A DNA stretch of 64,000 bases from positions 4,410 through 68,409 of the IMG/VR virus record IMGVR_UViG_2788500234_000002; one strand, given 5' to 3'. The translations under genes and the position numbers were made by a program. Position 1 is the first letter of the stretch; the number at the start of each line of letters is the position of its first letter. The stretch comes from a virus. Taxonomy: Duplodnaviria; Caudoviricetes. This document shows, piece by piece, positions 9 to 59,094 of the stretch. The notes beneath the pieces were generated by a model. The model ran no database searches, was not told the DNA's origin, and was given only the letters and a program-made list of their open reading frames with translations.

Positions 9-1970
9 ATGAAACAGGTAACATTAAAATCCCTAACCCTTTGCAATTTCAAGGGTGAAAAGGAACGGACAACGAATTTCAACCCGGACGTAACCACCAT
101 TTCGGGCGGCAACGGGCTGGGCAAGTCAAGGCATTTCGATGCTTTCATTTGGTTGCTTTTCGGCAAGGATTCCAAAGACCGAAAAGACTACGAAATCAAG
201 ACCCGTGTTGATGGCAAGGAATTGCACAATGTAGAATGCAGCGTGTCGGGTGTCATTGATGTGGACGGTGAGGAAATCAACTTGAAACGTGCCTATATCG
301 AAGATTGGGTAAAACCACGTGGGCAAGTTGAAAGAGTGTTTAAGGGCAATCACACCGAATGTTGGTGGAACGACACCCCGGTCAATGTCGGTGAATACAC
401 CAAGAGGATTGAAGCAATCATTGATTCATCCGTGTTCAAGATGATAACCAATCCGGCATTCTTTGTCAATATGCCGTGGAAGCTGCAAAGGGAACAACTT
501 TTTCAGCTTGCCGGAACAATCACAGATGCCGAAATCGCTTCAAAGAAGCCCGAATTTGCCCTTTTGCTTGACAAGATAAGCGGCAAATCACTTTCGGACT
601 TCAAAGCCGAAATTTCGGCAAAAAAGAAGCGTTTGAAAGACGAATTGGCGCAAATCCAACCAAGGATTGACCAAACCCATAAGATGATGCCCGAAAATGA
701 GGATTTCAACGCCATTGAAGTTCAAATCCAAGTCATTGATGATGAAATCAAGGACATAGACAAGGCGATTAGTGATGCCACCGCCGCAATCCGCAAGGCG
801 TATGAAGCGGAGCAAAAGAAGCAAAAGGACGTGAACGCCTTGAAATCCGAATGCCAACAACTACTTTTCAGGGCAAAGGAAGAAGCGCAAAATGCCGCAT
901 TTGAAGCCAATGCCGCCCGCCGTGAATTGGAAAGCAATATCAAGGCAAAGGAACGTGAATTGGCAGCGACCAACCGTGAATTGTCGGCAAGCCGAAAAGA
1001 GCAAGAACGGCTTGAAGAAGATGTCAAAAAGTTGAAGTCGGAACAAGACACTTTGCGCAATCAATGGTTTGAAGAAAACGGCAAGGTCTATCATGGTGAA
1101 ACGACTTGTCCGCATTGCAAGCAGGAATTACCCGCCGCCATGATTGAGCAAGCAAGGGATGTTTTCACGAAAGCCCAAGCCGACAAATGTAATGATATAA
1201 CCTCAAAGGGAAAGCGAATTGGTGAAAGAATCAAGGAACTTGAAAAGGACATTGACGATGTGAAAAAGGACATTGAGAATGCCAATGCCAATGTCACGTC
1301 TATCAATGGCGAAATAAGCAAGATGAAAGCCGATTTCATTGCTTTGCCGCTTGTTGATGCCGCCGCCGTTGTGCCTGAATCAATCCCGGAATGGGTCGAA
1401 AAGCAAGCAAAAATCAAAGAGATTGAAGCGACCATAAGCACCGAAAAGGCAAGTTCCGCCGACACGAGCAAGGCACAGGAAAGGAAATCGGAGTTGAACA
1501 AGACCCGTGACGACCTCAATAAAAGGCTTGCCAACCGTGATGCAATCAAGCGTTATGAAGATGAAATCGCAAGCCTTGAAAAGAAAGGCAAAGACCTTGC
1601 CCAACAAATCGCCGATGTCGAAAAACAGGAATACACGGTTGAGCAATTCACAAAAACCAAGATTGATGAATGCGAAAGCCGGATAAACGGGATGTTCAAA
1701 TATGTGTCTTTCCGCTTGTTTGACTTCACTATTGACAACAACCCCGTTGAAACGTGCATTCCTTTGGTCAATGGCGTTCCATACCCAAGTGCGAACACGG
1801 CAGGACAAATGAATGCCGGGCTTGACATAATCAACACATTATGCCGCTTTTATGGCGTGTGCGCACCGATATTCATTGATAACCGTGAATCGGTCAATGA
1901 CATTATCGAAACTGAAAGTCAGATTATCAACCTTGTTGTAAACAAGGACAATTTTTTAACAATTAAATAA
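9..1970 (+). CDS. Rad50/SbcC-like coiled-coil AAA ATPase
   Basis: N-terminal Walker A GGNGLGKS, long coiled coil, central CPHC zinc-hook-like motif, C-terminal IFIDNRES Walker B-like motif. Confidence 0.8.
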   Translation: MKQVTLKSLTLCNFKGEKERTTNFNPDVTTISGGNGLGKSRHFDAFIWLLFGKDSKDRKDYEIKTRVDGKELHNVECSVSGVIDVDGEEINLKRAYIEDWVKPRGQVERVFKGNHTECWWNDTPVNVGEYTKRIEAIIDSSVFKMITNPAFFVNMPWKLQREQLFQLAGTITDAEIASKKPEFALLLDKISGKSLSDFKAEISAKKKRLKDELAQIQPRIDQTHKMMPENEDFNAIEVQIQVIDDEIKDIDKAISDATAAIRKAYEAEQKKQKDVNALKSECQQLLFRAKEEAQNAAFEANAARRELESNIKAKERELAATNRELSASRKEQERLEEDVKKLKSEQDTLRNQWFEENGKVYHGETTCPHCKQELPAAMIEQARDVFTKAQADKCNDITSKGKRIGERIKELEKDIDDVKKDIENANANVTSINGEISKMKADFIALPLVDAAAVVPESIPEWVEKQAKIKEIEATISTEKASSADTSKAQERKSELNKTRDDLNKRLANRDAIKRYEDEIASLEKKGKDLAQQIADVEKQEYTVEQFTKTKIDECESRINGMFKYVSFRLFDFTIDNNPVETCIPLVNGVPYPSANTAGQMNAGLDIINTLCRFYGVCAPIFIDNRESVNDIIETESQIINLVVNKDNFLTIK

Positions 1971-1980
1971 CAACGCAACA

Positions 1981-2298
1981 ATGGAAAAGAAAATTGAAAA
2001 AAGCGAATTTCTTTCAAAGGTGGAAGCATTCGCACATGAAATGACAACAATGACAGAAAAGAAAGAGGGTGTCAAACGTGGTCTTGTTATCCTTGCCGCC
2101 GAATCGGTGGAAAGTGAAAATGGCACAAAGCAAATCATTTCCGTGCTTGGCAATGGTGGAAAGGTGGTGGAAGCGATTGCCGGATTTGCTTCACAGGAAC
2201 ACGGCAAGTCATTTCTAATGGCTGGCATGAAAGAAGCCGCCCTAAATAGCCTTATTGAAAAAGTATTGGGGGGGGCAATCGTAATCATTAACAAGTAA
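1981..2298 (+). CDS. Hypothetical phage protein
   Basis: 105-aa ORF in operon with AT-rich upstream. Confidence 0.7.
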   Translation: MEKKIEKSEFLSKVEAFAHEMTTMTEKKEGVKRGLVILAAESVESENGTKQIISVLGNGGKVVEAIAGFASQEHGKSFLMAGMKEAALNSLIEKVLGGAIVIINK

Positions 2299-2309
2299 AA
2301 GATTGAATC

Positions 2310-3254
2310 ATGAACGAAATTCAGAAAACAGAAAAGCAGGGGCAAGCATTGACGGTTGCCGCCCCCGTACAAGTCGGGTTCAACTTCTTTGACCCGGTGC
2401 AATTCGACACCATGCAGCGTGTTTGCAAATTATTCGCAAGTTCGGAACTTGTGCCGGATATGTACAAAGTAACGGACAAAAACCCAATCGAAAAGGCGAT
2501 GGCAAATTGCATGATTGCCATTGAGATTGCCCAACGTATCGGCGCAAGTCCATTGATGGTTATGCAAAATATGGTGCCGATTTATGGCAAGCCGTCTTGG
2601 TCGTCAAAATTCCTTGTCGCCACCGTGAACACTTGCGGACGCTTCAAGCCCTTGAAGTACCGCTTCACCGAAAAAGGTATACTTGGCATGGTGGATTATG
2701 TCGAGTACACAAAAGTATGGGTAAACGGTCAAAACGGACGGGGCTATTATAAGAATGAAGCCACGACCAAGCAATTTGACGGGCGCAAGATGATGGATAT
2801 TGAGTGTGTCGCCTATACGAGCGCAAAGGGTTCGGATGAAGTCTTGGAAAGTTCGCCCGTATCAATCCGCCTTGCTATCCAAGAGGGGTGGTTTACAAAG
2901 AACGGTTCAAAATGGCAGACCATGACCAAACAGATGCTTATGTATCGTGCGGCTTCATTCTGGACAAGTGCTTATGCCCCTGAATTGTCAATGGGGATGC
3001 GTACCGTTGAGGAATACCAAGACATAATGGATGTGGATTATCAAGAAGTCGGGGCGGAAGTTGAAGCCGAAAAGCACGACAACGCCAACAAAGTGCAAAT
3101 CGGTGTGGATTTGGCGCAAGGTAACGACAAGACCACGGCGACAATGATTGACCCGGAAACGGGCGAAATCAAAGCGGTGCATGATGCCAATGCCGAAACG
3201 CCAAAAGAGGAAGCGGCACAAGCACCGACACCACAACCCCAACCCGGTTTCTAA
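2310..3254 (+). CDS. RecT-like single-strand annealing/recombination protein
   Basis: ANCMIAIEIAQRIGASPLMVMQN..GKPSWSSKF pattern, acidic C-terminal tail, position between SbcC-like ATPase and MBL nuclease. Confidence 0.6.
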   Translation: MNEIQKTEKQGQALTVAAPVQVGFNFFDPVQFDTMQRVCKLFASSELVPDMYKVTDKNPIEKAMANCMIAIEIAQRIGASPLMVMQNMVPIYGKPSWSSKFLVATVNTCGRFKPLKYRFTEKGILGMVDYVEYTKVWVNGQNGRGYYKNEATTKQFDGRKMMDIECVAYTSAKGSDEVLESSPVSIRLAIQEGWFTKNGSKWQTMTKQMLMYRAASFWTSAYAPELSMGMRTVEEYQDIMDVDYQEVGAEVEAEKHDNANKVQIGVDLAQGNDKTTATMIDPETGEIKAVHDANAETPKEEAAQAPTPQPQPGF

Positions 3255-3278
3255 CAAACAATCAAAATCCGAAAGGCT

Positions 3279-4022
3279 ATGGAATTGAAGATTTTGGGTT
3301 CGAGTTCAAAGGGCAATTGCTACTTGCTTGACAACGGCAATGATTGCTTGATGATAGAATGCGGCATTCCTTTCAAAGACGTGCAAAAGGCGGTCAATTT
3401 CGGCATTTCCCGCATTGCTGGTGTAATTATATCACACGAGCATGGCGACCACGCCAAACACGCCGGAAAGTGCCTTGAAGCGCAAATCCCATGCTATATG
3501 TCGCAAGGCACGAAAGACGCATTGCATTTGCCGCAAACCCGGCTTGTCCGTGTGATGGAAGAATTGAAAGTGTACGAAATCGGCAATTTCAAGGTGCAAC
3601 CATTCGCAACCCAACATGATGCCAAAGAGCCTTTCGGATTTTTGATTTACCACAAGGAATGCGGCATGGTCTTGTTCGCAACTGATACATATTACTTGCA
3701 TTACACCTTTCATGGATTGAATAACATCTTGATTGAATGCAATTACCGTCAAGACATATTGGATGCCAATGTTGAAGCGGGCAAATTGCCGATGGCGTTA
3801 CGGGCAAGGACAATGAAAAGCCATTGCAGCTTTGACACTTGCCGGGAAACATTGCTTGCAAACGACTTGTCAGGCGTGAACCATATTGTCTTGATACATC
3901 TTTCGGATGGCAATTCAAACGCAAAGGAGTTCAAGCAAGGAATCGAAGAAGCAACGGGCAAGACCACCCACATTGCCGAAAGCGGAATGACAATTTCAAA
4001 TTTCAACAAATCACCATTTTAA
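3279..4022 (+). CDS. Metallo-beta-lactamase-fold hydrolase (probable nuclease)
   Basis: SHEHGDH metal motif, ATQHDA, ATDT, IECNY, LIHLS motifs. Confidence 0.85.
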   Translation: MELKILGSSSKGNCYLLDNGNDCLMIECGIPFKDVQKAVNFGISRIAGVIISHEHGDHAKHAGKCLEAQIPCYMSQGTKDALHLPQTRLVRVMEELKVYEIGNFKVQPFATQHDAKEPFGFLIYHKECGMVLFATDTYYLHYTFHGLNNILIECNYRQDILDANVEAGKLPMALRARTMKSHCSFDTCRETLLANDLSGVNHIVLIHLSDGNSNAKEFKQGIEEATGKTTHIAESGMTISNFNKSPF

Positions 4023-4032
4023 TTTTCAGAAC

Positions 4033-4653
4033 ATGAAGAAGTTTCTTTTAAGACAAAAAGGCATTGAAAAAGCCATTGGAAAATTTGATTCAAAGATTGA
4101 AGCCGTTGATGTGATGGATGGTTACATTACGGACAACAACGATGAATTGGATTCAGACGATGAGGGGTATTTGACCCCGTTTGATTTCACCCTTGACGAA
4201 ATCGAGGAAAGGGAAATCAACGAATGTGTGACCAACTACGAGGAAGCCCGGAAGTATCTTGGCGGCAAGCCCAATGCGGACTTTTCCGTTACAAAGAAGC
4301 TGCAATCAAACAATTCTTTGGATTTGTCCGGCGTTGCCCACTTGGTTGATGAAATGAACCCCCGACACCTCAAAGCCCTTGCCGCATTGAACAAGTTGTT
4401 CACCATTGCGGAAGCATGGAACAAAGCGGATGATTTCGTGCCGGATTTCAGCAACCAAAACCAATACAAGTATTATCCTTGGTTTGTATATGACCGGGAT
4501 GCTGCGGGGTTCGTGTCTGCGGGTACGGATTATTCGGCTTCGTATACGTTTGCGTCTTTCGGTTCTCGGCTTTGCTTTAAGACCGCAAATCGGGCACGGC
4601 AATTCGGTGAAATGTTTGCCGACTTGTACAACGAAGTGTTCCTTTTCAAATAG
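4033..4653 (+). CDS. Phage protein of unknown function; second (remote) DGR target
   Basis: 206 aa; YYPWF...GSRLCF C-terminal region contains a 77-nt segment matching the DGR TR with differences only at TR adenines. Confidence 0.85.
   Translation: MKKFLLRQKGIEKAIGKFDSKIEAVDVMDGYITDNNDELDSDDEGYLTPFDFTLDEIEEREINECVTNYEEARKYLGGKPNADFSVTKKLQSNNSLDLSGVAHLVDEMNPRHLKALAALNKLFTIAEAWNKADDFVPDFSNQNQYKYYPWFVYDRDAAGFVSAGTDYSASYTFASFGSRLCFKTANRARQFGEMFADLYNEVFLFK
4501..4577 (+). repeat. DGR variable region VR2 (remote)
   Basis: Ungapped alignment to TR 42680-42756: 18 mismatches in 77 nt, all opposite TR adenines; same reading frame as TR/VR1. Confidence 0.92.
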
Positions 4654-41104: not shown

Positions 41105-42571
41105 ATGGGCTTGATTATTGGGGTCGGCAGCACAAAGCCGACATTCGCTTATGATTATTATTACGGCATTGAATGGGATGCCACGGTGTCAAATCCACAC
41201 CCGACAAGAATTGGCAAGATGGAACTTCACCAATCCTTGCCGTTGCAAAGCCTTATCCGGCGTTGTATCTTGAAAGACAACGGCGAAGTAAATTATTATC
41301 TTCACGCCAATGATTCAACGAAACGTGACACCGGGGCGGCGGCAAACCTTACCGGGGCGGATGGGCAATACATGGATGAATTGCCCGATATGTATGTCCG
41401 CTTTGAAACGGACGGCGACAAAAGCCGACATTTGCAGTCCACCGAACCTTTGCCGGGCTTCAAACTTTGGCGCAAAGACTATGTTTCGGCGGTGGAAGCG
41501 ACCGTTCAGCGTTCAACACAAACATTGTGTGCGGTTGTGAACAAAGATGTGGATTACAGGGGTGGCAACAATGATGCAAACCGTGACGGCACATATCGTT
41601 CACAGCTTGGAATGCCCGCAACGGTTATATCTTTGACCAATTTCCGCACATACGCAAGGAAGCGTGGAACGACCGAATGGAATTGCAACTTATACCAAAC
41701 ACACAAAAAATTGTGGTGGCTTTTTGCCGTTGAGTATTGCACATTCAATTCGCAAGAAGCGTTCAATGCCGAATTGACGGAAGATGGCTATCACCAAGGC
41801 GGTTTGGGTTCGGGCGTGACTAATCTTGATTGGACGAAATGGGCAAACTTTAATGGCAATTATCCGTTCGTGCCTTGTGGTACAACAAACAACCTTGGCA
41901 ACAAGACCGGGTATGTTGAATTTACCATGCCGTTTGAATATGATGCAAGTGGTGAAGCCAACTATAAGGGTGAATATAATGCGGCAACCGCATACACCGC
42001 CGGACAATATGTTTCACAAGGTGATTTGCTATACACTTGCAAAGCAAATGCAGCGGCAGGAACGGCATTGACAAACACAACCTATTTCACGCCCGTGACA
42101 CGCACGGTTGTGCAAGTGCCGTCTTACCGTGGTGTAGAAAACCCGTTTGGGCATATATGGAAGTGGACGGATGGTTGCAAATGTCTTATTCAGAGTGAAG
42201 CCGATGGCGGACTTTCTGAATTTTACGTTTGTGACGACCCGGCGGCATTCACAAGTTCCGGCACAACCAACTATGAATTGCGTGGCAACTTGCCAAGAAA
42301 AGAGGGGTATGTGAAGAAGATGATTCTTGGTGAAGATGGCGAAATCATGCCGCTTGAAGTCGGTGCGGGTTCGACCACATATTTTTGTGATTACTTCTAT
42401 ACCAACATTCCGGCAAGTGGAGTTTCGGAACGTGGCGTTTTGTTCGGCGGTCTTGCGAATGTTGGTGCGATTGCGGGGTTCGTGTTTGCGTCTGCGAATG
42501 TTACGGCTACGTATACGTCTGCGGCTGTCGGTTCTCGGCTTTGCTTTTATCCGCAAATCGAAGCGGCTTAA
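41105..42571 (+). CDS. Tail-fibre/receptor-binding-like protein, primary DGR target
   Basis: 488 aa; YRGVENPFGHIWKWTDG and C-terminal RGVLFGG..GSRLCF typical of C-type-lectin-fold DGR targets; VR1 at C-terminus. Confidence 0.85.
   Translation: MGLIIGVGSTKPTFAYDYYYGIEWDATVSNPHPTRIGKMELHQSLPLQSLIRRCILKDNGEVNYYLHANDSTKRDTGAAANLTGADGQYMDELPDMYVRFETDGDKSRHLQSTEPLPGFKLWRKDYVSAVEATVQRSTQTLCAVVNKDVDYRGGNNDANRDGTYRSQLGMPATVISLTNFRTYARKRGTTEWNCNLYQTHKKLWWLFAVEYCTFNSQEAFNAELTEDGYHQGGLGSGVTNLDWTKWANFNGNYPFVPCGTTNNLGNKTGYVEFTMPFEYDASGEANYKGEYNAATAYTAGQYVSQGDLLYTCKANAAAGTALTNTTYFTPVTRTVVQVPSYRGVENPFGHIWKWTDGCKCLIQSEADGGLSEFYVCDDPAAFTSSGTTNYELRGNLPRKEGYVKKMILGEDGEIMPLEVGAGSTTYFCDYFYTNIPASGVSERGVLFGGLANVGAIAGFVFASANVTATYTSAAVGSRLCFYPQIEAA
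42431..42546 (+). repeat. DGR variable region VR1
   Basis: Ungapped 116-nt alignment to TR: 21 mismatches, all opposite TR adenines. Confidence 0.96.
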
Positions 42572-42640: not shown

Positions 42641-42756
42641 CGTGGCGTTTTGTTCAGCGGTAATGCGAATAATGGTGCGAATGCAGGGTTCGTGTATGCG
42701 AATACGAATAATACGGCTACGAATACGAATGCGAATATCGGTTCTCAGCTATGCTT
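42641..42756 (+). repeat. DGR template repeat (TR)
   Basis: Non-coding, AAT-rich (30 adenines; reads RGVLFSGNANNGANAGFVYANTNNTATNTNANIGSQLC), between target gene and RT. Confidence 0.96.
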
Positions 42757-42918: not shown

Positions 42919-43941
42919 ATGAAACGGATTGGCAATTTGTTTGACCGGGTAATAAGCATTGAAAACTTGCGTCTTGCCGATGAAAAGGCAAGGAAAGGCA
43001 AGTTGCGTTCTTATGGTGTGCAAATACACGATAAGAACCGGGATGCCAATATCATTGCCTTGCACGAAAGTTTGAAAAACGGCACATTCAAAACATCCAA
43101 ATATCACGTTTTCACCATATATGAACCGAAAGAAAGGCTAATTTACCGATTGCCGTATTATCCCGACCGTATCTTGCACCATGCCATTATGAACGTCCTT
43201 GAACCGATATGGGTTTCCATCTTCAACAAGAACACATATTCTTGTATCAAGAATCGTGGAATCCACAAGTGCGCAAAGGATGTCAAACAAGCATTGAAGC
43301 AAGACCCGGACGGAACACGCTATTGCCTGAAAATTGACATAAAGAAGTTTTATCCGTCAATCCACCATGATGTCTTGAAAGGCATTGTCAGGCGGAAAAT
43401 AAAAGATAATCGCTTATTGGCATTGCTTGATGAAATCATTGATTCGGTCGATGATGAAAAGGGCGTGCCGATAGGCAATTATTTAAGTCAGTATTTTGCA
43501 AACCTTGTCTTGGCTTATTTCGACCATTGGTTGAAAGAAACCAAGCGTGTGAAGTATTATTGGCGATATGCCGATGATATAGTCATTCTTGCACCCAACA
43601 AAGAAGTATTGCATGAATTGTTACACGAAATCCGGGCTTACCTGAAAGGGTTAAAGTTGCGTGTAAAACGCAATTACCAAGTCTTTCCCGTTGATTCAAG
43701 GGGAATTGACTTTTTGGGATATGTCTTTTACCATACGCATACATTGTTGCGAAAGTCTATCAAGCAGAAACTTTGCCGCCGGGTGGCAAAATTGAACAAG
43801 CGCAAGATTGTTCCAAGCAAAGAAGATTACAAGCAGCAAATATGCAGTTGGTGGGGATGGTGCAAGTATTGTGATTCACTCAATTTAATGAACAAACTTT
43901 CAAAAACATTTCCGTATGAAATTAGATTTAATAGAACCTAA
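42919..43941 (+). CDS. DGR reverse transcriptase
   Basis: 340 aa; YPDRILHHA, LKIDIKKFYPSI, GVPIGNYLSQYFAN, YWRYADDIV, GIDFLGY; no maturase/endonuclease extension; TR immediately upstream. Confidence 0.95.
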   Translation: MKRIGNLFDRVISIENLRLADEKARKGKLRSYGVQIHDKNRDANIIALHESLKNGTFKTSKYHVFTIYEPKERLIYRLPYYPDRILHHAIMNVLEPIWVSIFNKNTYSCIKNRGIHKCAKDVKQALKQDPDGTRYCLKIDIKKFYPSIHHDVLKGIVRRKIKDNRLLALLDEIIDSVDDEKGVPIGNYLSQYFANLVLAYFDHWLKETKRVKYYWRYADDIVILAPNKEVLHELLHEIRAYLKGLKLRVKRNYQVFPVDSRGIDFLGYVFYHTHTLLRKSIKQKLCRRVAKLNKRKIVPSKEDYKQQICSWWGWCKYCDSLNLMNKLSKTFPYEIRFNRT

Positions 43942-44302
43942 TGCGCACTATGATATGGCGCACGGGAAACCCGCCGTTTTGGAGTATGACAATGACGGTT
44001 CTTGGCTTTACCGCTTGAATATAGAACCCGAAATGGGCATACCAGAGGGGCAAGAAGAAGAAACCCAAATCGGGTGGAAGTGCTATGAAGTGCGTGGCTA
44101 CAATAAAGCCACAAAAGAGAATGTTAAACGGGTCGTTATCCGTTCGGTCATTGACGAAACGGCAGAATTTGACCTTGTTAATTCCTACAACAAACACGTT
44201 CTTGGCGTTGCCGTGAACGAAAGTGCAGTTGATGAATACAAGGAGTATTTGCAGTTTACGGAAGATTTGGATGCGGTCTTGATAGAAGATTTGTCTAATT
44301 AA
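43916..44302 (+). CDS. Hypothetical acidic protein overlapping RT stop
   Basis: 128 aa; 26-nt overlap with RT. Confidence 0.7.
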   Translation: MKLDLIEPNAHYDMAHGKPAVLEYDNDGSWLYRLNIEPEMGIPEGQEEETQIGWKCYEVRGYNKATKENVKRVVIRSVIDETAEFDLVNSYNKHVLGVAVNESAVDEYKEYLQFTEDLDAVLIEDLSN

Positions 44303-46591: not shown

Positions 46592-46625
46592 CTTTCCGTA
46601 AGCCTTTGACACTCAATGTGTATTG

Positions 46626-46710
46626 CGGAGAGGGAGGGATTCGAACCCCCGGAGCCTTTCAGCTCAACAGTTTTCAAGACTGCCGTAATCGACCACTCTA
46701 CCACCTCTCC
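46626..46710 (-). tRNA. tRNA-Ser (TGA)
   Basis: GGAGAGG/CCTCTCC acceptor stem, anticodon arm GCAGT-CTTGAAA-ACTGT, long variable arm, GGTTCGAATCC T-loop; CCA not encoded. Confidence 0.96.
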
Positions 46711-47218: not shown

Positions 47219-47249
47219 TTTGCTGGGTAACAAAAAATGCCTACCTTTG
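47219..47249 (+). promoter_or_regulatory. Integrase promoter
   Basis: TTTG-N19-TACCTTTG, 27 nt before MAKKK start. Confidence 0.7.
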
Positions 47250-47275
47250 TAGTGGTAACATTCAATAGTAGCATT

Positions 47276-48424
47276 ATGGCAAAGAAAAAGAAAGCTGTCA
47301 AGGCTAAAGAGCCGATCAGATTACGATTCAAGGAACTTGCGAACGGGAATAAAAGTTTGTATCTGGACACTTATAGGGATGGGAAACGATCTTATGAGTT
47401 TCTGAAACTCTACCTTATACCGGAAACAAATGAGGAAGCCAAGATGAGGAATGCTAATACTCTACAGGCTGCAAACTCTATCAAAGCGCAAAAGATCATC
47501 GAACTTACCAATGGAGAAGCTGGAATTAGCAAAAATTCCACCAGATCAAAGATGCTTCTAATGGACTGGATGAGGTACTACAGCGAGCACAAGCTAAAGA
47601 CTGGGCAAAGTGCCGCTTTTCATATCCAGATAGATAAGGCTATAAAGCACCTCATTAAATATAAAGGTGAAGATATTACGATGAAAGAAGTGGATAAGGC
47701 TTATTGCATCGGCTTTATAGACTATCTGAATAATGCCAAACGGAAAGATGGAAAACCGATGGCTAAAGTTACAACCGCAGGTTATTTTAGGTGCTTGAAT
47801 TGTGCCCTAAATCTTGCTGTAAAGGAAGAGATCATTCCTTATAATCCAATTTCAAAAATAAATTCAGATGATCGAATCAAAATACCAGAAAGCACACGGG
47901 AATACCTGACTGTTGAGGAGGTAAAAAAGTTGATAGCAGAAAAATGTATCAATGAACCGACCAAACAAGCGTATTTATTCAGTTGCTTTTGTGGGTTAAG
48001 ATTGGGCGACATTCAGGCTTTGACTTGGGGAGATATTATTTTAGATGGCACACAATACAGGGCAAGAATAGTGATGAAGAAAACACAAAAAACACTCTAT
48101 TTGCCTTTGTCCGATGAGGCTTTGAAGTGGATGCCTGAACGGGGAGAGGCAAAAGATACGGATAAAGTTTTTCATCTTCCTTACCCTACTTACATAAATG
48201 TAGTGCTGAAAACATGGGCGCAAAATTGTGGAATAACAAAGACGGTGACATTTCACACCGCCCGGCATACATTCGCCACAATGATGCTTACATTGGGGGC
48301 TGATCTTTACACTACGAGCAAACTATTAGGGCATACACAAGTAAAAACTACCCAAATATATGCTAAGATAGTTGATAAGAAAAAAGATGAGGCGGTGAAC
48401 CTTGTAAATGAAATCTTCAAATAA
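47276..48424 (+). CDS. Tyrosine integrase (Bacteroidales type)
   Basis: N-terminal arm-binding SLYLDTY..RSYEFLKLYL; FSCFCGLR, TFHTARHTFAT, LLGHTQVKTTQIYA catalytic motifs; start taken at MAKKK. Confidence 0.95.
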   Translation: MAKKKKAVKAKEPIRLRFKELANGNKSLYLDTYRDGKRSYEFLKLYLIPETNEEAKMRNANTLQAANSIKAQKIIELTNGEAGISKNSTRSKMLLMDWMRYYSEHKLKTGQSAAFHIQIDKAIKHLIKYKGEDITMKEVDKAYCIGFIDYLNNAKRKDGKPMAKVTTAGYFRCLNCALNLAVKEEIIPYNPISKINSDDRIKIPESTREYLTVEEVKKLIAEKCINEPTKQAYLFSCFCGLRLGDIQALTWGDIILDGTQYRARIVMKKTQKTLYLPLSDEALKWMPERGEAKDTDKVFHLPYPTYINVVLKTWAQNCGITKTVTFHTARHTFATMMLTLGADLYTTSKLLGHTQVKTTQIYAKIVDKKKDEAVNLVNEIFK

Positions 48425-54009: not shown

Positions 54010-57000
54010 ATGGAAAATATAGGTGGAGCATTAGCATTCAAAGCCACTCTTGATATAGATGATTTCAAGGTATCAAGCGAAGCGATGGGGCGTTATATCA
54101 AAAACGCTTCTGATAATGCCGTGCTGGAAGCAAACCGCATGGAGCAATCGTTTCTGACCTTTGCGCAAAACGGAGCGAGATATATTGTTTCCTACCTTGT
54201 TGGGCAAGGAATGATGAGCCTTGTGCAAAGCATAGTGCAAGTGCGTGGGCAGTTCCAGCAACTTGAACTGGCTTTCAATACCATGTTGAGAAGCACTGAA
54301 AAATCACAGGTGCTTATGTCGCAACTGGTAGATACAGCCGCTAAAACTCCGTTTGACCTTACCAGCATAGCGCAAGGAGCAAAACAGATGCTTGCTTTCG
54401 GATCAAATGTGGGAAGCGTGGTAGATGAGATCGTGATGCTTGGTAATGTGGCTTCTGGTGTGAGTGCGCCACTTGGAGATCTTATCTACCTCTATGGAAC
54501 ATTGAGATCGCAAGGCAGGGCATACACGGTGGATATTCGCCAGTTTGCCGGGCGTGGTATTCCTATCTATGAAGAGTTGGGAAAGGTGCTTAACGCAGAC
54601 AGGCAGGAACTGAACAAGCTGGTAACGGAGGGAAAAGTTGGATTCCCGGAAGTTGAAAAGGCATTTAAGAACATGACCAGTGAGGGCGGTATTTACTTCA
54701 ACCTCATGCAAGAGCAAAGTAAGTCGCTTACTGGTATGCTTTCAAACTTGGGCGATGCTTGGGATAGTGCGCTTAACAAGATCGGCAAGGATAATGAAGA
54801 TTTGTTCGCTGGAGCTATTCAGGGTGCTATAGACCTTGTAGAGAATATGGATGAGATTATCCGTATTGTACAGGCTGTTACTATTGCCTATGGAAGCTAC
54901 AAGGCGGCAATAATGCTGAATACACTTGCCACAAAGGGATATACCGGGGTTGCTTTGATAGACAACACGGTTAAACAGGCAAAGATAGCCTTACTGAAAG
55001 CAGAAGCCACCATTACAGGGCAGACAGCGGCACAAATAAAGGCTATGACAGCTGTACAACAAGCCCATGTAGCCGCATTGCAAAAGGAGCTTACAGCGGA
55101 AGAGCAAGCCAATCTGGTAAAGAAACTCCGTATTGCCACCATACAGCAACTTTTGACAGCACAACAGCAGGAATACTTATCCAACCTTAACCTTACCGCC
55201 TCTTCTGCCAATTATGAGGCTGTAGCTACTTCTGTATTGACTGTTGAGCAAAGGGAAGCACTTAGCAAAACCGATCTATCGGCTAAGAGTGCTGTATATC
55301 GTGCGGCTCTGGAGCAAGAAGTGGCAGCAAAAAGGAGTAATATAGTCGCTTCTGTAGAAACTTTGCGGGAAGAAGTAAAATTGGCTGCAAGTCGGGCTGA
55401 ATCTGCCAAGAAAAACTCTATATCAGCGATGCAAGCTACAGAAGCGGCACGGGCTACTTTGCTTGCCGCCAGAGAATCGGGGAAAGCCTCAAAGATAGCT
55501 TCAGCAGAAAAAAGATTAGAAACAGCCCAAACAAAACAACTTACTTTAGCCCAAGAACGTATGGCAGCAGTTGCTGACTTCAACGCTAAAAAGAAGCAGT
55601 TGGAAGCGGCAGCAATCCAGCAATCAAGGTTAGCCTCATCCATAGACACAGCAGCAAAAACAGCACAAGCTACCACTACCAATGTTCTAACATTAGCGAC
55701 TAACAAACTTACAGCCTCATTTAAGGCATTGTGGCTGTCAATGAAAGCAAATCCTATTACATGGGTCGTTTCATTGGTTGGAATGGCTTTCAGTGCGATT
55801 TCTATGCTTTCTTCAAAGACTAAAGAACTGGAGGAAGATACGGTAAGTTTGGCTAATTCAACCAAACGAGCTACAGAGCGATTCAGTGAAGAAGCTGGAA
55901 AAGTTGAGGCTTTGGAGAAAATAATCAGAAATAGCAATGTTGCATACGATGAGCGCAACAGAGCTTTAAATGAACTGAAACAGATTATACCCGGATATAA
56001 TGCAGAATTGACCAAAGAGGGTACTATTATCAATGACAATGCCGATGCAATCCAGCGGTACTTAAGTTTGTTAGAAAAGCAAATAAGGATGAAAGCGGCA
56101 CAAGAGGAACTGGAAGCAGCTTATAGGGAAAAGAGGCTCAAAGAAAAAGAGATCATCCAAAAACAAGCAGCCTATGATGAAGCGAGTGCCAACGTTCCAG
56201 ATGTAGCCTATGGCGATGCTGGAGCACAATATCAGATGTATGCTTTGAGGCAAGCAGGGAAAGCGGAAAGACAACTAAAACAGGCTCAAAAGGAACTCAC
56301 AGACATAAACAAGACTATTGAAGCGTTGAACCAAGAGATCAGCGACTCTTCAGGGGAAATAGACAAATCTTCCGAGAGTGCAAAAACTTATTCAGAGCAG
56401 ATAGCAGACACGAGAACACAAATTGCCACGCTTACAAAAGAGTTGGAAGATTTGCGATCTGGAAAAGTTGTCAAAGACAATTTAGCAGGAGAGATAGATG
56501 CCAAAATAAAAGAACTCAATACGGCAAAAAAGAATCTCGAATTGCTTACTGGTATTACAAGCTCTGGGAATAGCAGTAACAGCGCAAATCAGTTATCACA
56601 GAAAGAACTGGAGGCACAACGTGAATTGGAAGAGGCACGTATCTCTATCATGGAAGATGGCTATGAGAAACGTAAAGCCATTCTGGACTTACAGCACAAA
56701 GAGAATCTGGATCGCATAGACAGAGAGGAAAGAGAACTGGAGAAAGCACGTAAAGCAGCCGGAAAAGGTGGATTGACTGCAACGGAGCAAGAGGGATTCG
56801 ATGAGAGAAGAAGCATTGAGAATACCAGTTATCAGAGAGAGCAAAACAAGCTGTTTGATGGTGAAATAGCTTACAAAAAACAGCAGTATGAGTTGTATTT
56901 CCGCTGGGTGCGTAATCTGGGCGAAGATGTAGCGAACACACAGTTCGCAAACTTGCTGAAAGGCGGTGCTTCATTCAAACAATATCTGGAGAACCAGATA

Positions 57001-59094
57001 GCGGAAATGAACCAGAAGAAAGAAGCCGGGACACTGACAGAGGGCGAGGGAAACCACCTTATTTCCCTGAATATGCAATATGATGAGATCACGGGCGCAA
57101 AGTCCGCAATGGATCTTTTCAAGGAAAGTGTTACGGAAGCAATATCGCAAGCCAGCACACTTGCAGAGAGAGTGCAAGCCATAGCCGATGCCAAAGAAAG
57201 GCTTGCAAGCGGAAGTACAGGGCTTGTTGGTGATGATGAGAAAGCGGAAGCAAGCCTATTCATATCGGAGAAGCAAGCGGAAGCGGATAAAGAAATTCAG
57301 GATAAGATACTGAATAATTACAGAAGTTATGAGGAACAAAAGAAAGATATTCAGGAGGAATACGCTTTATTGCGCTCCGAGGCTCAAAAGACAAACGATC
57401 AGGAACGTATAAAGATGATTAATGAGGCAGAGAATGAAGCACTTTCAACTCTTAATGCCAATTTCCTTAAACAGTCTGATAGTTGGAAATCTTTGTTTGA
57501 AGATCTGGATAACCTTTCTGCCAAAGAGATTGCAAAGCTGTTATCTGATATTGAAACACAACTTGATAATTCTGATTTGAAACTTAGTCCAGTTGACTAT
57601 AAGGCGTTGATTGATAGCCTGAATAAGGCAAGGCAGGAACTTATATCAAAAAACCCTTTTACGGCTTTAGGCGCATACTTCGATGATTATATTAAAGCTA
57701 AAGAAAAGTTGGCAAAAGCAAAAGCAAACTTACTGGCAGGAAAGGGATCTGACAAAGATGTGCAAAATGCAGAAAAAGAAATGAGAGAATCCGCAAAAGG
57801 CGTAACAGAATCAGTTGAAGCAATAACAAGAGCCGCTACAGAATGCGGTAGTTCGCTTGCTTCAATGTTTGAAAGTTTTGGTGCGGATGGATTAGCAGAA
57901 GGTCTTGGGACTGCAACAGAGCTTTTAGGACAACTGGGAAATACAGCGGCAAGTGTTGGCAAGCTGATGAGCGGTGATATTCTTGGCGGTATTACAGGTA
58001 TAGTAAGTTCCGTAACTTCTGTTATCGGTATATTCAATAAGTTACATGATAAGAAGTATGAAAAAAGGATCGAACAATTACAGGATGATATAGATAACTT
58101 AGAGCGTTCTTACAGCCGTTTGGAACGTGCATTCAATAACACATATTGGGTTTTTGATGAGCAACAGAGAGAGGGATATGAAAAAAATATCAATCTAATA
58201 AAAGAACAGATCTCCGCTTTGGAGAAACAACAGGCTGTTGCACTTAGAAGCTGGAACTTCGTAGAATACGCAAAACTTACAGCGCAAATTAAGGAGCTGA
58301 ACGGTGAGCTTCAAAAAGCGGAAGAAAGCGGAGATATGTTTTCTATATACGAGGCTCAAAAAGAAAGTCTTAGGAAACAGCAAGACGATCTTAGAAAACA
58401 GATTCAAGCAGAACGGGACAAAAAAGACACTGACAATAACCGTATAAATGAATGGGAAAATCAAATAGAAGCCATTAACCAACAAATAGAGGATCTGGAT
58501 AAGGCAATGATGGAAACTTTGGCTGGTACAGACGTTCAAAGTGCCATTGATGAATTTGCCGATGCCCTTGTAGATGCTTATTGTCAAGGTGAAGATGCGG
58601 CAAAGGCATTGGGTGAGGTAACGAAAGAAACTCTTAAAAATGCGGTTGTGGAAGCCTTAAAACGCCAGTTCCTTGCTAAAGCCATTAATGATGCCGTGCT
58701 TTATCTTGGTGAAGCCATGCAAGACAATGTGCTATCAGACTATGAGAAGAAGCGGTTTGAGGAAATGGTGAAGCTGGGAGCGGATAAATTCAATATGGCT
58801 TTGGAGAGTGTAGGCGACTGGATAAAGGATCAGACGGAAGAAGAAGAGGAAGCCGATCCTCTTACTGGTGCTGTTACTTCCATGAGCGAGGAAACAGGAG
58901 GTGTGATTGCCGGGCGTTTGAATGCCTTTGTAATCAACCAGAGCGATCAGATAGCGATTATGAGGCAATATCTTATTTATCAAATAGAAATAGCGGAAAA
59001 CACACGTTATTGTAGAAGACTTGATGAAATTGCTGATTCGTTAAAGAGAATAGAAAACAAAGATAATTCATTACTATCACAAGGAATATCGTAA
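54010..59094 (+). CDS. Tape measure protein (1694 aa)
   Basis: Tape-measure domain AAKTPFDL..GAKQMLAFG..DIRQFAGRGIPIYEEL; N- and C-termini homologous to prophage TMP. Confidence 0.92.
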   Translation: MENIGGALAFKATLDIDDFKVSSEAMGRYIKNASDNAVLEANRMEQSFLTFAQNGARYIVSYLVGQGMMSLVQSIVQVRGQFQQLELAFNTMLRSTEKSQVLMSQLVDTAAKTPFDLTSIAQGAKQMLAFGSNVGSVVDEIVMLGNVASGVSAPLGDLIYLYGTLRSQGRAYTVDIRQFAGRGIPIYEELGKVLNADRQELNKLVTEGKVGFPEVEKAFKNMTSEGGIYFNLMQEQSKSLTGMLSNLGDAWDSALNKIGKDNEDLFAGAIQGAIDLVENMDEIIRIVQAVTIAYGSYKAAIMLNTLATKGYTGVALIDNTVKQAKIALLKAEATITGQTAAQIKAMTAVQQAHVAALQKELTAEEQANLVKKLRIATIQQLLTAQQQEYLSNLNLTASSANYEAVATSVLTVEQREALSKTDLSAKSAVYRAALEQEVAAKRSNIVASVETLREEVKLAASRAESAKKNSISAMQATEAARATLLAARESGKASKIASAEKRLETAQTKQLTLAQERMAAVADFNAKKKQLEAAAIQQSRLASSIDTAAKTAQATTTNVLTLATNKLTASFKALWLSMKANPITWVVSLVGMAFSAISMLSSKTKELEEDTVSLANSTKRATERFSEEAGKVEALEKIIRNSNVAYDERNRALNELKQIIPGYNAELTKEGTIINDNADAIQRYLSLLEKQIRMKAAQEELEAAYREKRLKEKEIIQKQAAYDEASANVPDVAYGDAGAQYQMYALRQAGKAERQLKQAQKELTDINKTIEALNQEISDSSGEIDKSSESAKTYSEQIADTRTQIATLTKELEDLRSGKVVKDNLAGEIDAKIKELNTAKKNLELLTGITSSGNSSNSANQLSQKELEAQRELEEARISIMEDGYEKRKAILDLQHKENLDRIDREERELEKARKAAGKGGLTATEQEGFDERRSIENTSYQREQNKLFDGEIAYKKQQYELYFRWVRNLGEDVANTQFANLLKGGASFKQYLENQIAEMNQKKEAGTLTEGEGNHLISLNMQYDEITGAKSAMDLFKESVTEAISQASTLAERVQAIADAKERLASGSTGLVGDDEKAEASLFISEKQAEADKEIQDKILNNYRSYEEQKKDIQEEYALLRSEAQKTNDQERIKMINEAENEALSTLNANFLKQSDSWKSLFEDLDNLSAKEIAKLLSDIETQLDNSDLKLSPVDYKALIDSLNKARQELISKNPFTALGAYFDDYIKAKEKLAKAKANLLAGKGSDKDVQNAEKEMRESAKGVTESVEAITRAATECGSSLASMFESFGADGLAEGLGTATELLGQLGNTAASVGKLMSGDILGGITGIVSSVTSVIGIFNKLHDKKYEKRIEQLQDDIDNLERSYSRLERAFNNTYWVFDEQQREGYEKNINLIKEQISALEKQQAVALRSWNFVEYAKLTAQIKELNGELQKAEESGDMFSIYEAQKESLRKQQDDLRKQIQAERDKKDTDNNRINEWENQIEAINQQIEDLDKAMMETLAGTDVQSAIDEFADALVDAYCQGEDAAKALGEVTKETLKNAVVEALKRQFLAKAINDAVLYLGEAMQDNVLSDYEKKRFEEMVKLGADKFNMALESVGDWIKDQTEEEEEADPLTGAVTSMSEETGGVIAGRLNAFVINQSDQIAIMRQYLIYQIEIAENTRYCRRLDEIADSLKRIENKDNSLLSQGIS

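Follow-up and report, generated by a model that had tools for sequence, protein, structure and literature searches.

Can the DGR of a prophage, besides diversifying a tail protein, rewrite a second gene that lies far away among recombination and replication functions, and what would such a hypermutated protein be for? The question is raised by a stretch of viral DNA of 64,000 nucleotides (hereafter the window), corresponding to bases 4410-68409 of a 68.4-kb IMG/VR provirus record. To our knowledge, DGRs are the only natural systems of targeted protein hypermutation in prokaryotes and their viruses, and nearly all that we know of their function in phages concerns receptor binding. A hypermutated target that is not structural points to accelerated evolution of an intracellular interaction. 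We find it very probable that a 206-aa gene of the window is a genuine, recently active second target of the prophage's single DGR. The features concerned are listed in Table 1.

Table 1. Features of the window discussed in the text, with window coordinates.
Feature	Position	Strand	Basis
Upstream cassette: SMC/AAA_15-like ATPase (9-1970), RecT (2310-3254), MBL-fold hydrolase (3279-4022)	9-4022	+	Pfam, PHROG
Second DGR target gene, 206 aa, phrog_11581-like	4033-4653	+	ORF, PHROG match
VR2, homologous to the 3′ two-thirds of TR	4501-4577	+	18 mismatches, at A only
5′ homology block GCGGGGTTCGTGT	4504-4516	+	invariant in all VR1 and VR2 copies of the compared lineages
VR2 hypervariable core, aa 162-176	about 4516-4560	+	entropy, A-site polymorphism
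IMH-like 3′ end CGGTTCTCGGCTTTGCTT, the same in VR1	4559-4578	+	TR counterpart is the IMH*-like CAGCTATGCTTG
First DGR target, 488-aa tail protein, VR1 at its C-terminus	41105-42571	+	phrog_5302 tail protein, E 8.5e-115
VR1, full-length TR match	42431-42546	+	A-only mismatches against TR 42641-42756
TR, then IMH*-like end	42641-42756	+	alignment to both VRs
DGR reverse transcriptase (RT), 340 aa	42919-43941	+	RVT_1, E 6.9e-21; IGNYLSQ and YADD motifs readable
128-aa ORF overlapping the RT stop	43916-44302	+	phrog_11557, function-less PHROG
attR core ATTGCGGAGAGGGAGG, 16 bp	46622-46637		overlaps the 3′ end of tRNA-Ser (46625-46710, minus)

An earlier note on this DNA had proposed that the 206-aa ORF carries a second variable repeat, written from the same TR as that of the tail protein. 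The ORF exists, and the alignment on which the proposal was built is exactly reproduced: window positions 4501-4577 align with TR 42680-42756 without gaps, with 59 identities over 77 nt, and each of the 18 mismatches lies opposite a TR adenine. There are 23 adenines within those 77 nt, and the hypergeometric probability that 18 mismatches all land on them is about 2e-13. In the same register, VR1 (42470-42546) has 16 mismatches to TR, every one at A. Both repeats are in frame 0 of their own ORF and in the same frame relative to TR, as had been stated, and the three peptide translations quoted at the time are obtained again letter for letter. VR2 is indeed not a simple copy of VR1: they share 63 of the 77 nt and an identical 3′ end, and differ from each other at 14 sites. 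The remarks that VR2 uses only the 3′ two-thirds of TR and is followed by 25 aa hold as well.

Codon positions 1 and 2 contain 21 of the 23 TR adenines. The hypervariable part is narrower than the aligned stretch: this core of VR2 (aa 162-176) consists of six AAT-derived codons and six single-A codons (TAT, ACG, ATC), from which a possible repertoire of about 4.7e10 peptides is computed (six NNT codons combined with six four-outcome codons).

Variation among homologues falls at the A sites, as the earlier note expected. In an alignment of the best 120 homologues, entropy amounts to 2.8-3.3 bits at the six AAT-templated positions and 1.1-2.0 bits at the six single-A codons, against 0.1-0.5 at the interleaved GCG/GCT codons. 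For close relatives we used DNA: 15 viral contigs encoding a 90-96% identical protein make, with the window, a set of 16 genes. In this set 20 of the 23 A sites are polymorphic, compared with 5 of the 54 non-A VR sites and 96 of the 544 remaining sites of the gene; all four bases are present at 11 of the 23 A sites. Pairwise, the L015 gene departs from that of the window by 14 A-site changes and a single other one in 621 nt, and the L005 gene by 14 A-site changes and two others.

Three genomes (G001, G002 and G005) have TRs that are 100% identical over 321 nt, yet VR1 and VR2 are distinct in each. Since VR2 differs at A sites only, while the TR is identical and the flanks nearly so, many recent independent events must have taken place. 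VR2 varies wherever VR1 does; it is not the invariant repeat that would have spoken against the proposal. The pattern extends further. Ten phages of about 50 kb are more distant (their proteins are 55-65% identical), and there too the remote gene matches the TR beside the RT, with mismatches at A except for two fixed positions just past the IMH; in 14 further lineages VR2 mismatches its own TR at A sites, the sole exceptions being two fixed positions at the IMH end. In addition, lineage-specific non-A variants of TR are present in both VR1 and VR2 of the same genome in L021 (GTGTACGCG..TTCGGCGGCG), L028 (TTCGTTT), L029 (GGCTTCGTG..GCGCCGTCG) and L041 (ACGCCT). This sharing shows that information flows from TR to both sites. 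An RT was found in 10 of the 11 relatives that are at least 90% complete. Altogether, the comparison of relatives and the A-only mismatches strongly support the claim that one TR diversifies a second, remote target.

Two individual contigs have unusual repeats. In the close relative L018 (L018:3440-3560) VR2 has an apparent short deletion: the alignment shifts for lack of the stretch preceding the IMH, which suggests that imprecise homing or deletion is tolerated there. In L049 (L049:3001-3600; IMGVR_UViG_3300013903_000025, a contig of 9.4 kb) the target gene begins normally but continues as TR-type sequence: its AAT codons are unmutated, its end is of the IMH* type, and the DNA that lies downstream of TR comes next. 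Either the assembly joined two loci across the repeat, or VR2 and TR have truly recombined.

Could the similarity of VR2 to TR and VR1 stem from ordinary recombination or gene conversion between paralogous C-termini, instead of retrohoming? The 63 of 77 nt and the 3′ end common to VR1 and VR2 might be taken in this sense, and so might the VR2/TR chimera of contig L049. Conversion, however, would not confine differences to TR adenines; nor does it fit with fixation of 49 of the 54 non-A sites when 11 of the 23 A sites have all four bases, or with two VRs that differ mutually at the very sites where each departs from TR. We give conversion practically no weight, and keep retrohoming from the common TR as the origin of VR2.

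The ends of the repeats are well delimited. At their 3′ ends, VR1 and VR2 both have GGTTCTCGGCTTTGCTT, and the TR equivalent is GGTTCTCAGCTATGCTTG. GGTTCTCGGCTTTGCTT is fixed in every VR1 and VR2 of 15 lineages, and TR always has GGTTCTCAGC(T/A)ATGCTTG; GGTTCTCGGCTTTGCTT probably acts as the IMH. On the 5′ side, TR homology of the target gene begins abruptly at 4501-4504, and homologues hardly vary at the first codon (4501-4503) or at the G at 4506. GCGGGGTTCGTGT is the sole conserved block on this side, with TR variants of individual lineages reproduced in both VRs, and is a likely anchor where the 5′ end of cDNA integration would be resolved. Search for a hairpin 3′ of VR2 or VR1 returned only stems of 3-4 bp, with fold z-scores of 0.28 (VR2) and -0.40 (VR1), which are not significant. 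A CCGCAAATCG box, found 3′ of both VRs in the window, was considered as a universal recognition element and rejected: it is missing after VR2 in most distant lineages and is therefore not a general requirement.

We propose the following course of events, in line with the established DGR mechanism. TR RNA would be copied by the RT with random misincorporation opposite adenines. The resulting cDNA would replace VR1 in the tail gene, and it would also act in trans on the 77 nt of homology to the 3′ part of TR in the 206-aa gene, targeted to VR2 via the IMH-like end common to both VRs. With 5′ resolution inside the short GCGGGGTTCGTGT block, the outcome would be some 12 rewritten codons, those of aa 162-176.

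As for the other genes of the DGR, the RT starts 160 bp downstream of TR, and there is no room for a gene between target, TR and RT. Pfam and PHROG searches found no Avd-like gene: the 128-aa ORF at the RT stop has no Pfam or PADLOC match, only phrog_11557, and is a possible accessory gene. The RT of five relatives (G009, G010, G012, G014 and G018; L071-L075, L079-L083) aligns in two pieces although it is encoded in one frame of 366-388 aa, which indicates a probable insertion of about 10-25 aa near RT residue 180-190 in those five. Bacuni phage F2 is likewise described as having an RT insertion, of 19 aa (PMC8143477).

The target gene also occurs in phages without a DGR. In G003 (L011:2999-3609; IMGVR_UViG_3300029711_000267) it is 94% DNA-identical to the window gene, and the identity has exact limits, 2 nt ahead of the start codon and 12 nt short of the stop. 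The G003 phage is otherwise unrelated: it lacks both RT and TR, its tail gene is another one, and its target gene is located near a PAPS-reductase gene. G020, a complete genome with terminal repeats, has no RT and no TR-like repeat either; there, the target gene lies about 0.8 kb downstream of two DNA methyltransferase genes. Such orphan copies are still VR-like, with mostly A-site differences to the nearest known TR and one or two non-A ones, and in two of them the IMH is mutated (..CTCTGC.. in L047, ..CTCGTC.. in L044). Because the copy in G003 is a precise single-gene cassette, the orphans are best read as the result of single-gene transfer or DGR loss. Their persistence in the absence of RT and TR implies that the protein functions without continuing diversification.

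The earlier note held that VR-like homologues in DGR-less phages would contradict it. Formally, G003 and G020 are homologues of this kind, but they are outweighed by the diversification data. They do bring up the reading of VR2 as a fossil, which was written by the DGR once and is no longer a substrate in this prophage, the variation of the relatives being inherited. Orphan copies without RT and TR, the mutated IMH in two of them, and a search that found neither an Avd gene nor a clear downstream hairpin would all be compatible with a fossil. Against it, VR2 of the window has an intact IMH that does not differ from the one in VR1, the RT is whole and retains its catalytic motifs, and genomes with identical TRs and near-identical flanks carry differing VR2s, whose changes are confined to A sites. 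We consider a fossil very unlikely, and treat VR2 in what follows as a repeat that the DGR can probably still write.

The distance between target and template depends on the limits of the prophage. The 16 bp of the attR core are found again, identical, at G000:152-167, beside a phage integrase at G000:345-1622 (425 aa), and the relatives have an integrase of 425-429 aa at the same, left end. The att repeat at both ends defines a prophage of about 50.9 kb. On the prophage map, therefore, 38.2 kb separate VR2 from TR, but once the prophage is circular, the path across attP is only about 12.6 kb long: the distance of 38 kb given earlier is right for the integrated map and not for the circle. We discarded the integrase at 47237-48424 as the phage's own, given the different one at the left end of the relatives and the att repeat at 46622-46637. 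This second integrase, past the repeat, has 395 aa and is only about 30% identical to integrases of the phage's relatives; next come a DnaC-like gene and an ORF of 1694 aa (54010-59094). From 47.2 kb onward, the DNA looks like a separate integrative element, placed in tandem at the same tRNA and included in the 'provirus' record. The hosts of relatives, from a single-protein scan of genome contigs, are Prevotella, Bacteroides pyogenes, Parabacteroides and Muribaculaceae; the element is a Bacteroidales (Prevotella/Bacteroides-type) prophage.

Of 62 loci, 51 have the cassette of ATPase, RecT and MBL hydrolase immediately upstream of the target gene, which in the others has foreign neighbours; in the window 10 nt separate the MBL hydrolase gene and the target gene. 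On the 3′ side follow two PHROGs without known function, a replication initiator, a DnaC-like loader and Ant; then a deoxyribosyltransferase, a C5 methyltransferase, an exonuclease, a second methyltransferase, a pyrophosphatase, SSB and a resolvase; and finally terminase, portal, MuF, capsid and tail genes, the VR1 tail protein, TR, RT and endolysin. Terminase, head and tail genes begin about 11 kb downstream of the target. Its assignment to a recombination and replication region was thus correct: RecT, the MBL hydrolase, the replication initiator, DnaC, methyltransferases and SSB are all around it.

Two of the upstream genes deserve a comment of their own. The MBL hydrolase belongs to phrog_392 and is a generic Lactamase_B in Pfam. 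Its gene has a 151-nt, 71% blastn match to genes of Porphyromonas gingivalis phages that are Apyc1-like (anti-Pycsar) by depositor label only, and a PDB sequence search with the protein gave no match at E values up to 0.001. With that label as its support, Apyc1 is no more than a candidate identity; the protein could equally be a recombination nuclease partner of RecT. The ATPase obtains its best PADLOC scores against the LmuB and AriA defence-system ATPase models (E 1e-19 to 5e-17), though it is part of a RecT operon.

The N-terminus of the 206-aa protein (MKKFLLRQKGIEK...) has no hydrophobic signal-like segment; the protein appears to lack a signal peptide and would be cytoplasmic. Its computed pI is 4.7, and 4.4 for the N-terminal half. 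An AlphaFold2 model based on a 91-sequence alignment reaches a pLDDT of 88.9 and has two domains. The N-terminal part is predicted as a small alpha/beta unit. The C-terminal domain (aa ~96-206), modelled alone with a pLDDT of 90.7, is made of two helices, a beta-hairpin, a loop and two terminal helices, and the model places VR2 on the second strand of the hairpin and the following loop. The earlier note had suggested looking for a C-type-lectin-like fold: a confident model was obtained, but searches with the protein detected no C-type lectin match. These searches returned no functional, Pfam or solved-structure match and no structural PHROG.

Homologues form 3788 clusters at 90% identity, nearly all of 206 aa, and 1119 clusters at 50%; the conserved part is the C-terminal 100 aa. 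No fused domain giving a functional hint was recognised in the longer members (243-353 aa). The family occurs in siphovirus-like, Quimby/LoVE-like and crAss-like phages. It is a large, phage-only family, represented here by a soluble, acidic, two-domain protein of an early operon.

What, then, could be bound by the variable loop? From the gene neighbourhood together with the N-terminus devoid of a signal-like segment, we infer an intracellular role in anti-defence or host takeover. Our leading, still tentative, suggestion is that the protein is a variable binder acting inside the infected cell in phage-host conflict, for instance on polymorphic host defence or nuclease proteins. A bolder version is possible, and we offer it as speculation: the family might be the variable 'antigen-binding' arm of phage counter-immunity, with a cytoplasmic, DGR-written loop selected to neutralise polymorphic defence or nuclease proteins. 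If true, the phage would pre-generate variants of an inhibitor much as it does those of a receptor-binding protein, and the target family would be a widespread class of programmable anti-defence binders.

The genomic position allows a narrower proposal, namely that the protein serves the recombination module as Gam or Abc would: it would block, in variable form, a host nuclease that is polymorphic (of the RecBCD/AddAB type or a restriction enzyme) and that would otherwise degrade intermediates of recombination or replication. In lambda Red-type operons, nuclease inhibitors occupy the same position, and in the window's lineage the target gene always comes after the ATPase, RecT and MBL genes; the acidity of the protein, especially of its N-terminal half, would also be in keeping with it. 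However, the protein resembles Gam, Abc2, Ocr and ArdA neither in sequence nor in structure, and the homologues of LoVEphage, G003 and G020 are not beside a recombinase. We regard this proposal as doubtful, and prefer the more general one of a variable binder within the infected cell.

A quite different role would be one in the virion or in adsorption. The protein might decorate the particle or assist receptor binding, its gene just happening to lie apart from those of the tail, in which case VR2 would serve host range as VR1 does. The experimentally established role of phage DGRs is tropism switching, as with Mtd of BPP-1, and a template shared by VR1 and VR2 entails similar chemistry of the binding loops. 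The distal target of Bacuni phages, moreover, is a fimbrial-tip-like adhesin (PMC8143477). On the other side stand the operon in which the target gene is embedded, with ATPase, RecT, MBL and replication genes, in the 51 of 62 loci, and its location in other phages among DNA methyltransferases or beside a PAPS reductase. The protein matched no structural PHROG, and the single-gene cassette has moved between phages with unrelated tail modules, though packaging into the virion would still be compatible with all these points. We judge a virion role unlikely, and the intracellular binder remains our working interpretation.

How does this system compare with known ones? In BPP-1 (mtd-avd-TR-brt), the DGR has a single target adjoining the cassette, and needs Avd and a GC-rich hairpin after VR. 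The window has in common with it the A-specific transfer from TR to VR, AAY-rich template codons, IMH and IMH*, and a target at the end of a tail protein (VR1). Unlike BPP-1, it has a second target in trans, and neither an Avd-like gene nor a significant hairpin was found.

Second targets as such have been described before. Bacuni phages of Bacteroides uniformis (Hedzet et al. 2021; PMC8143477) have, like the window, a DGR that serves two targets, the second far off in the genome. Both of theirs are DUF1566/Fib_succ_major fimbrial-tip-like adhesins, presumably structural, whereas such domains were not found in the window protein. In Quimbyvirus, a distal second DGR target was reported with a proposed role in phage-host conflict (Benler et al. 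2021, Microbiome 9:78; PMC8008677), and a 2025 Nature paper presents four Bacteroidota prophage species whose second VR is distal from the RT, near counter-defence genes (PMC12629997). The novelty implied by the earlier note is therefore not upheld: distal non-structural targets beside counter-defence genes are already in the literature (PMC8008677, PMC12629997). The prophages of the 2025 paper resemble the window in their distal second VR and in the arms-race interpretation, a likeness drawn from their description, the paper containing no target-protein analysis; their genomes were not found in the phage collection that we searched.

For LoVEphage, the likeness extends to the protein itself. 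AUSP0023_00079 of OY731433.1 (194 aa) is a homologue of the window protein, with 28% identity over aa 66-206 (tblastn, E 3e-6), and tblastn matches with E values from 3e-6 to 7e-4 occur in five genomes of the LoVEphage group: three LoVEphage, Phocaeicola phage PV4-TP1 and Bacteroides phage BI-TP1. The motifs K-Y-x-PWF, GSRL and QFG are common to the window and LoVEphage proteins, and in both, helices follow the VR. The C-terminus of the LoVEphage target aligns over 113 nt with the TR beside its RT, and all 19 mismatches are at A; the neighbours of the gene encode methyltransferases, a PAPS reductase and a tRNA ligase. One B. dorei prophage, in CP011531.1, is matched by Quimbyvirus as well as by LoVEphage. 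Judging by these sequence matches, the distal targets of two unrelated phage groups belong to one protein family, of which the window contributes the member of a new lineage.

In their general plan, Quimbyvirus and LoVEphage are like the window: one target is in the tail module next to the RT, and the second, far away, is a small protein with no recognisable domain, surrounded by DNA-modification and counter-defence genes. They differ in several respects. The window prophage is about 51 kb long and sits at tRNA-Ser, against 71-75 kb for Quimbyvirus and LoVEphage, from which it is distinct as a lineage. Unlike theirs, its target gene shares the strand of all other genes and is embedded in a RecT/MBL recombination cassette. 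The window's VR2, in which the WGG..G segment is deleted, covers only 77 nt of TR; in LoVEphage the match extends over 113 nt. The window's RT is a single ORF, compared with the three overlapping frames reported for Quimbyvirus (PMC8008677). To a concept published in 2021 and 2025, the window thus adds a case that is clean, intact and evidently active, in a prophage some 51 kb long, along with the findings that the family moves as a single-gene cassette and survives without a DGR, and a defined protein, with a confident model, is now available for experiments.
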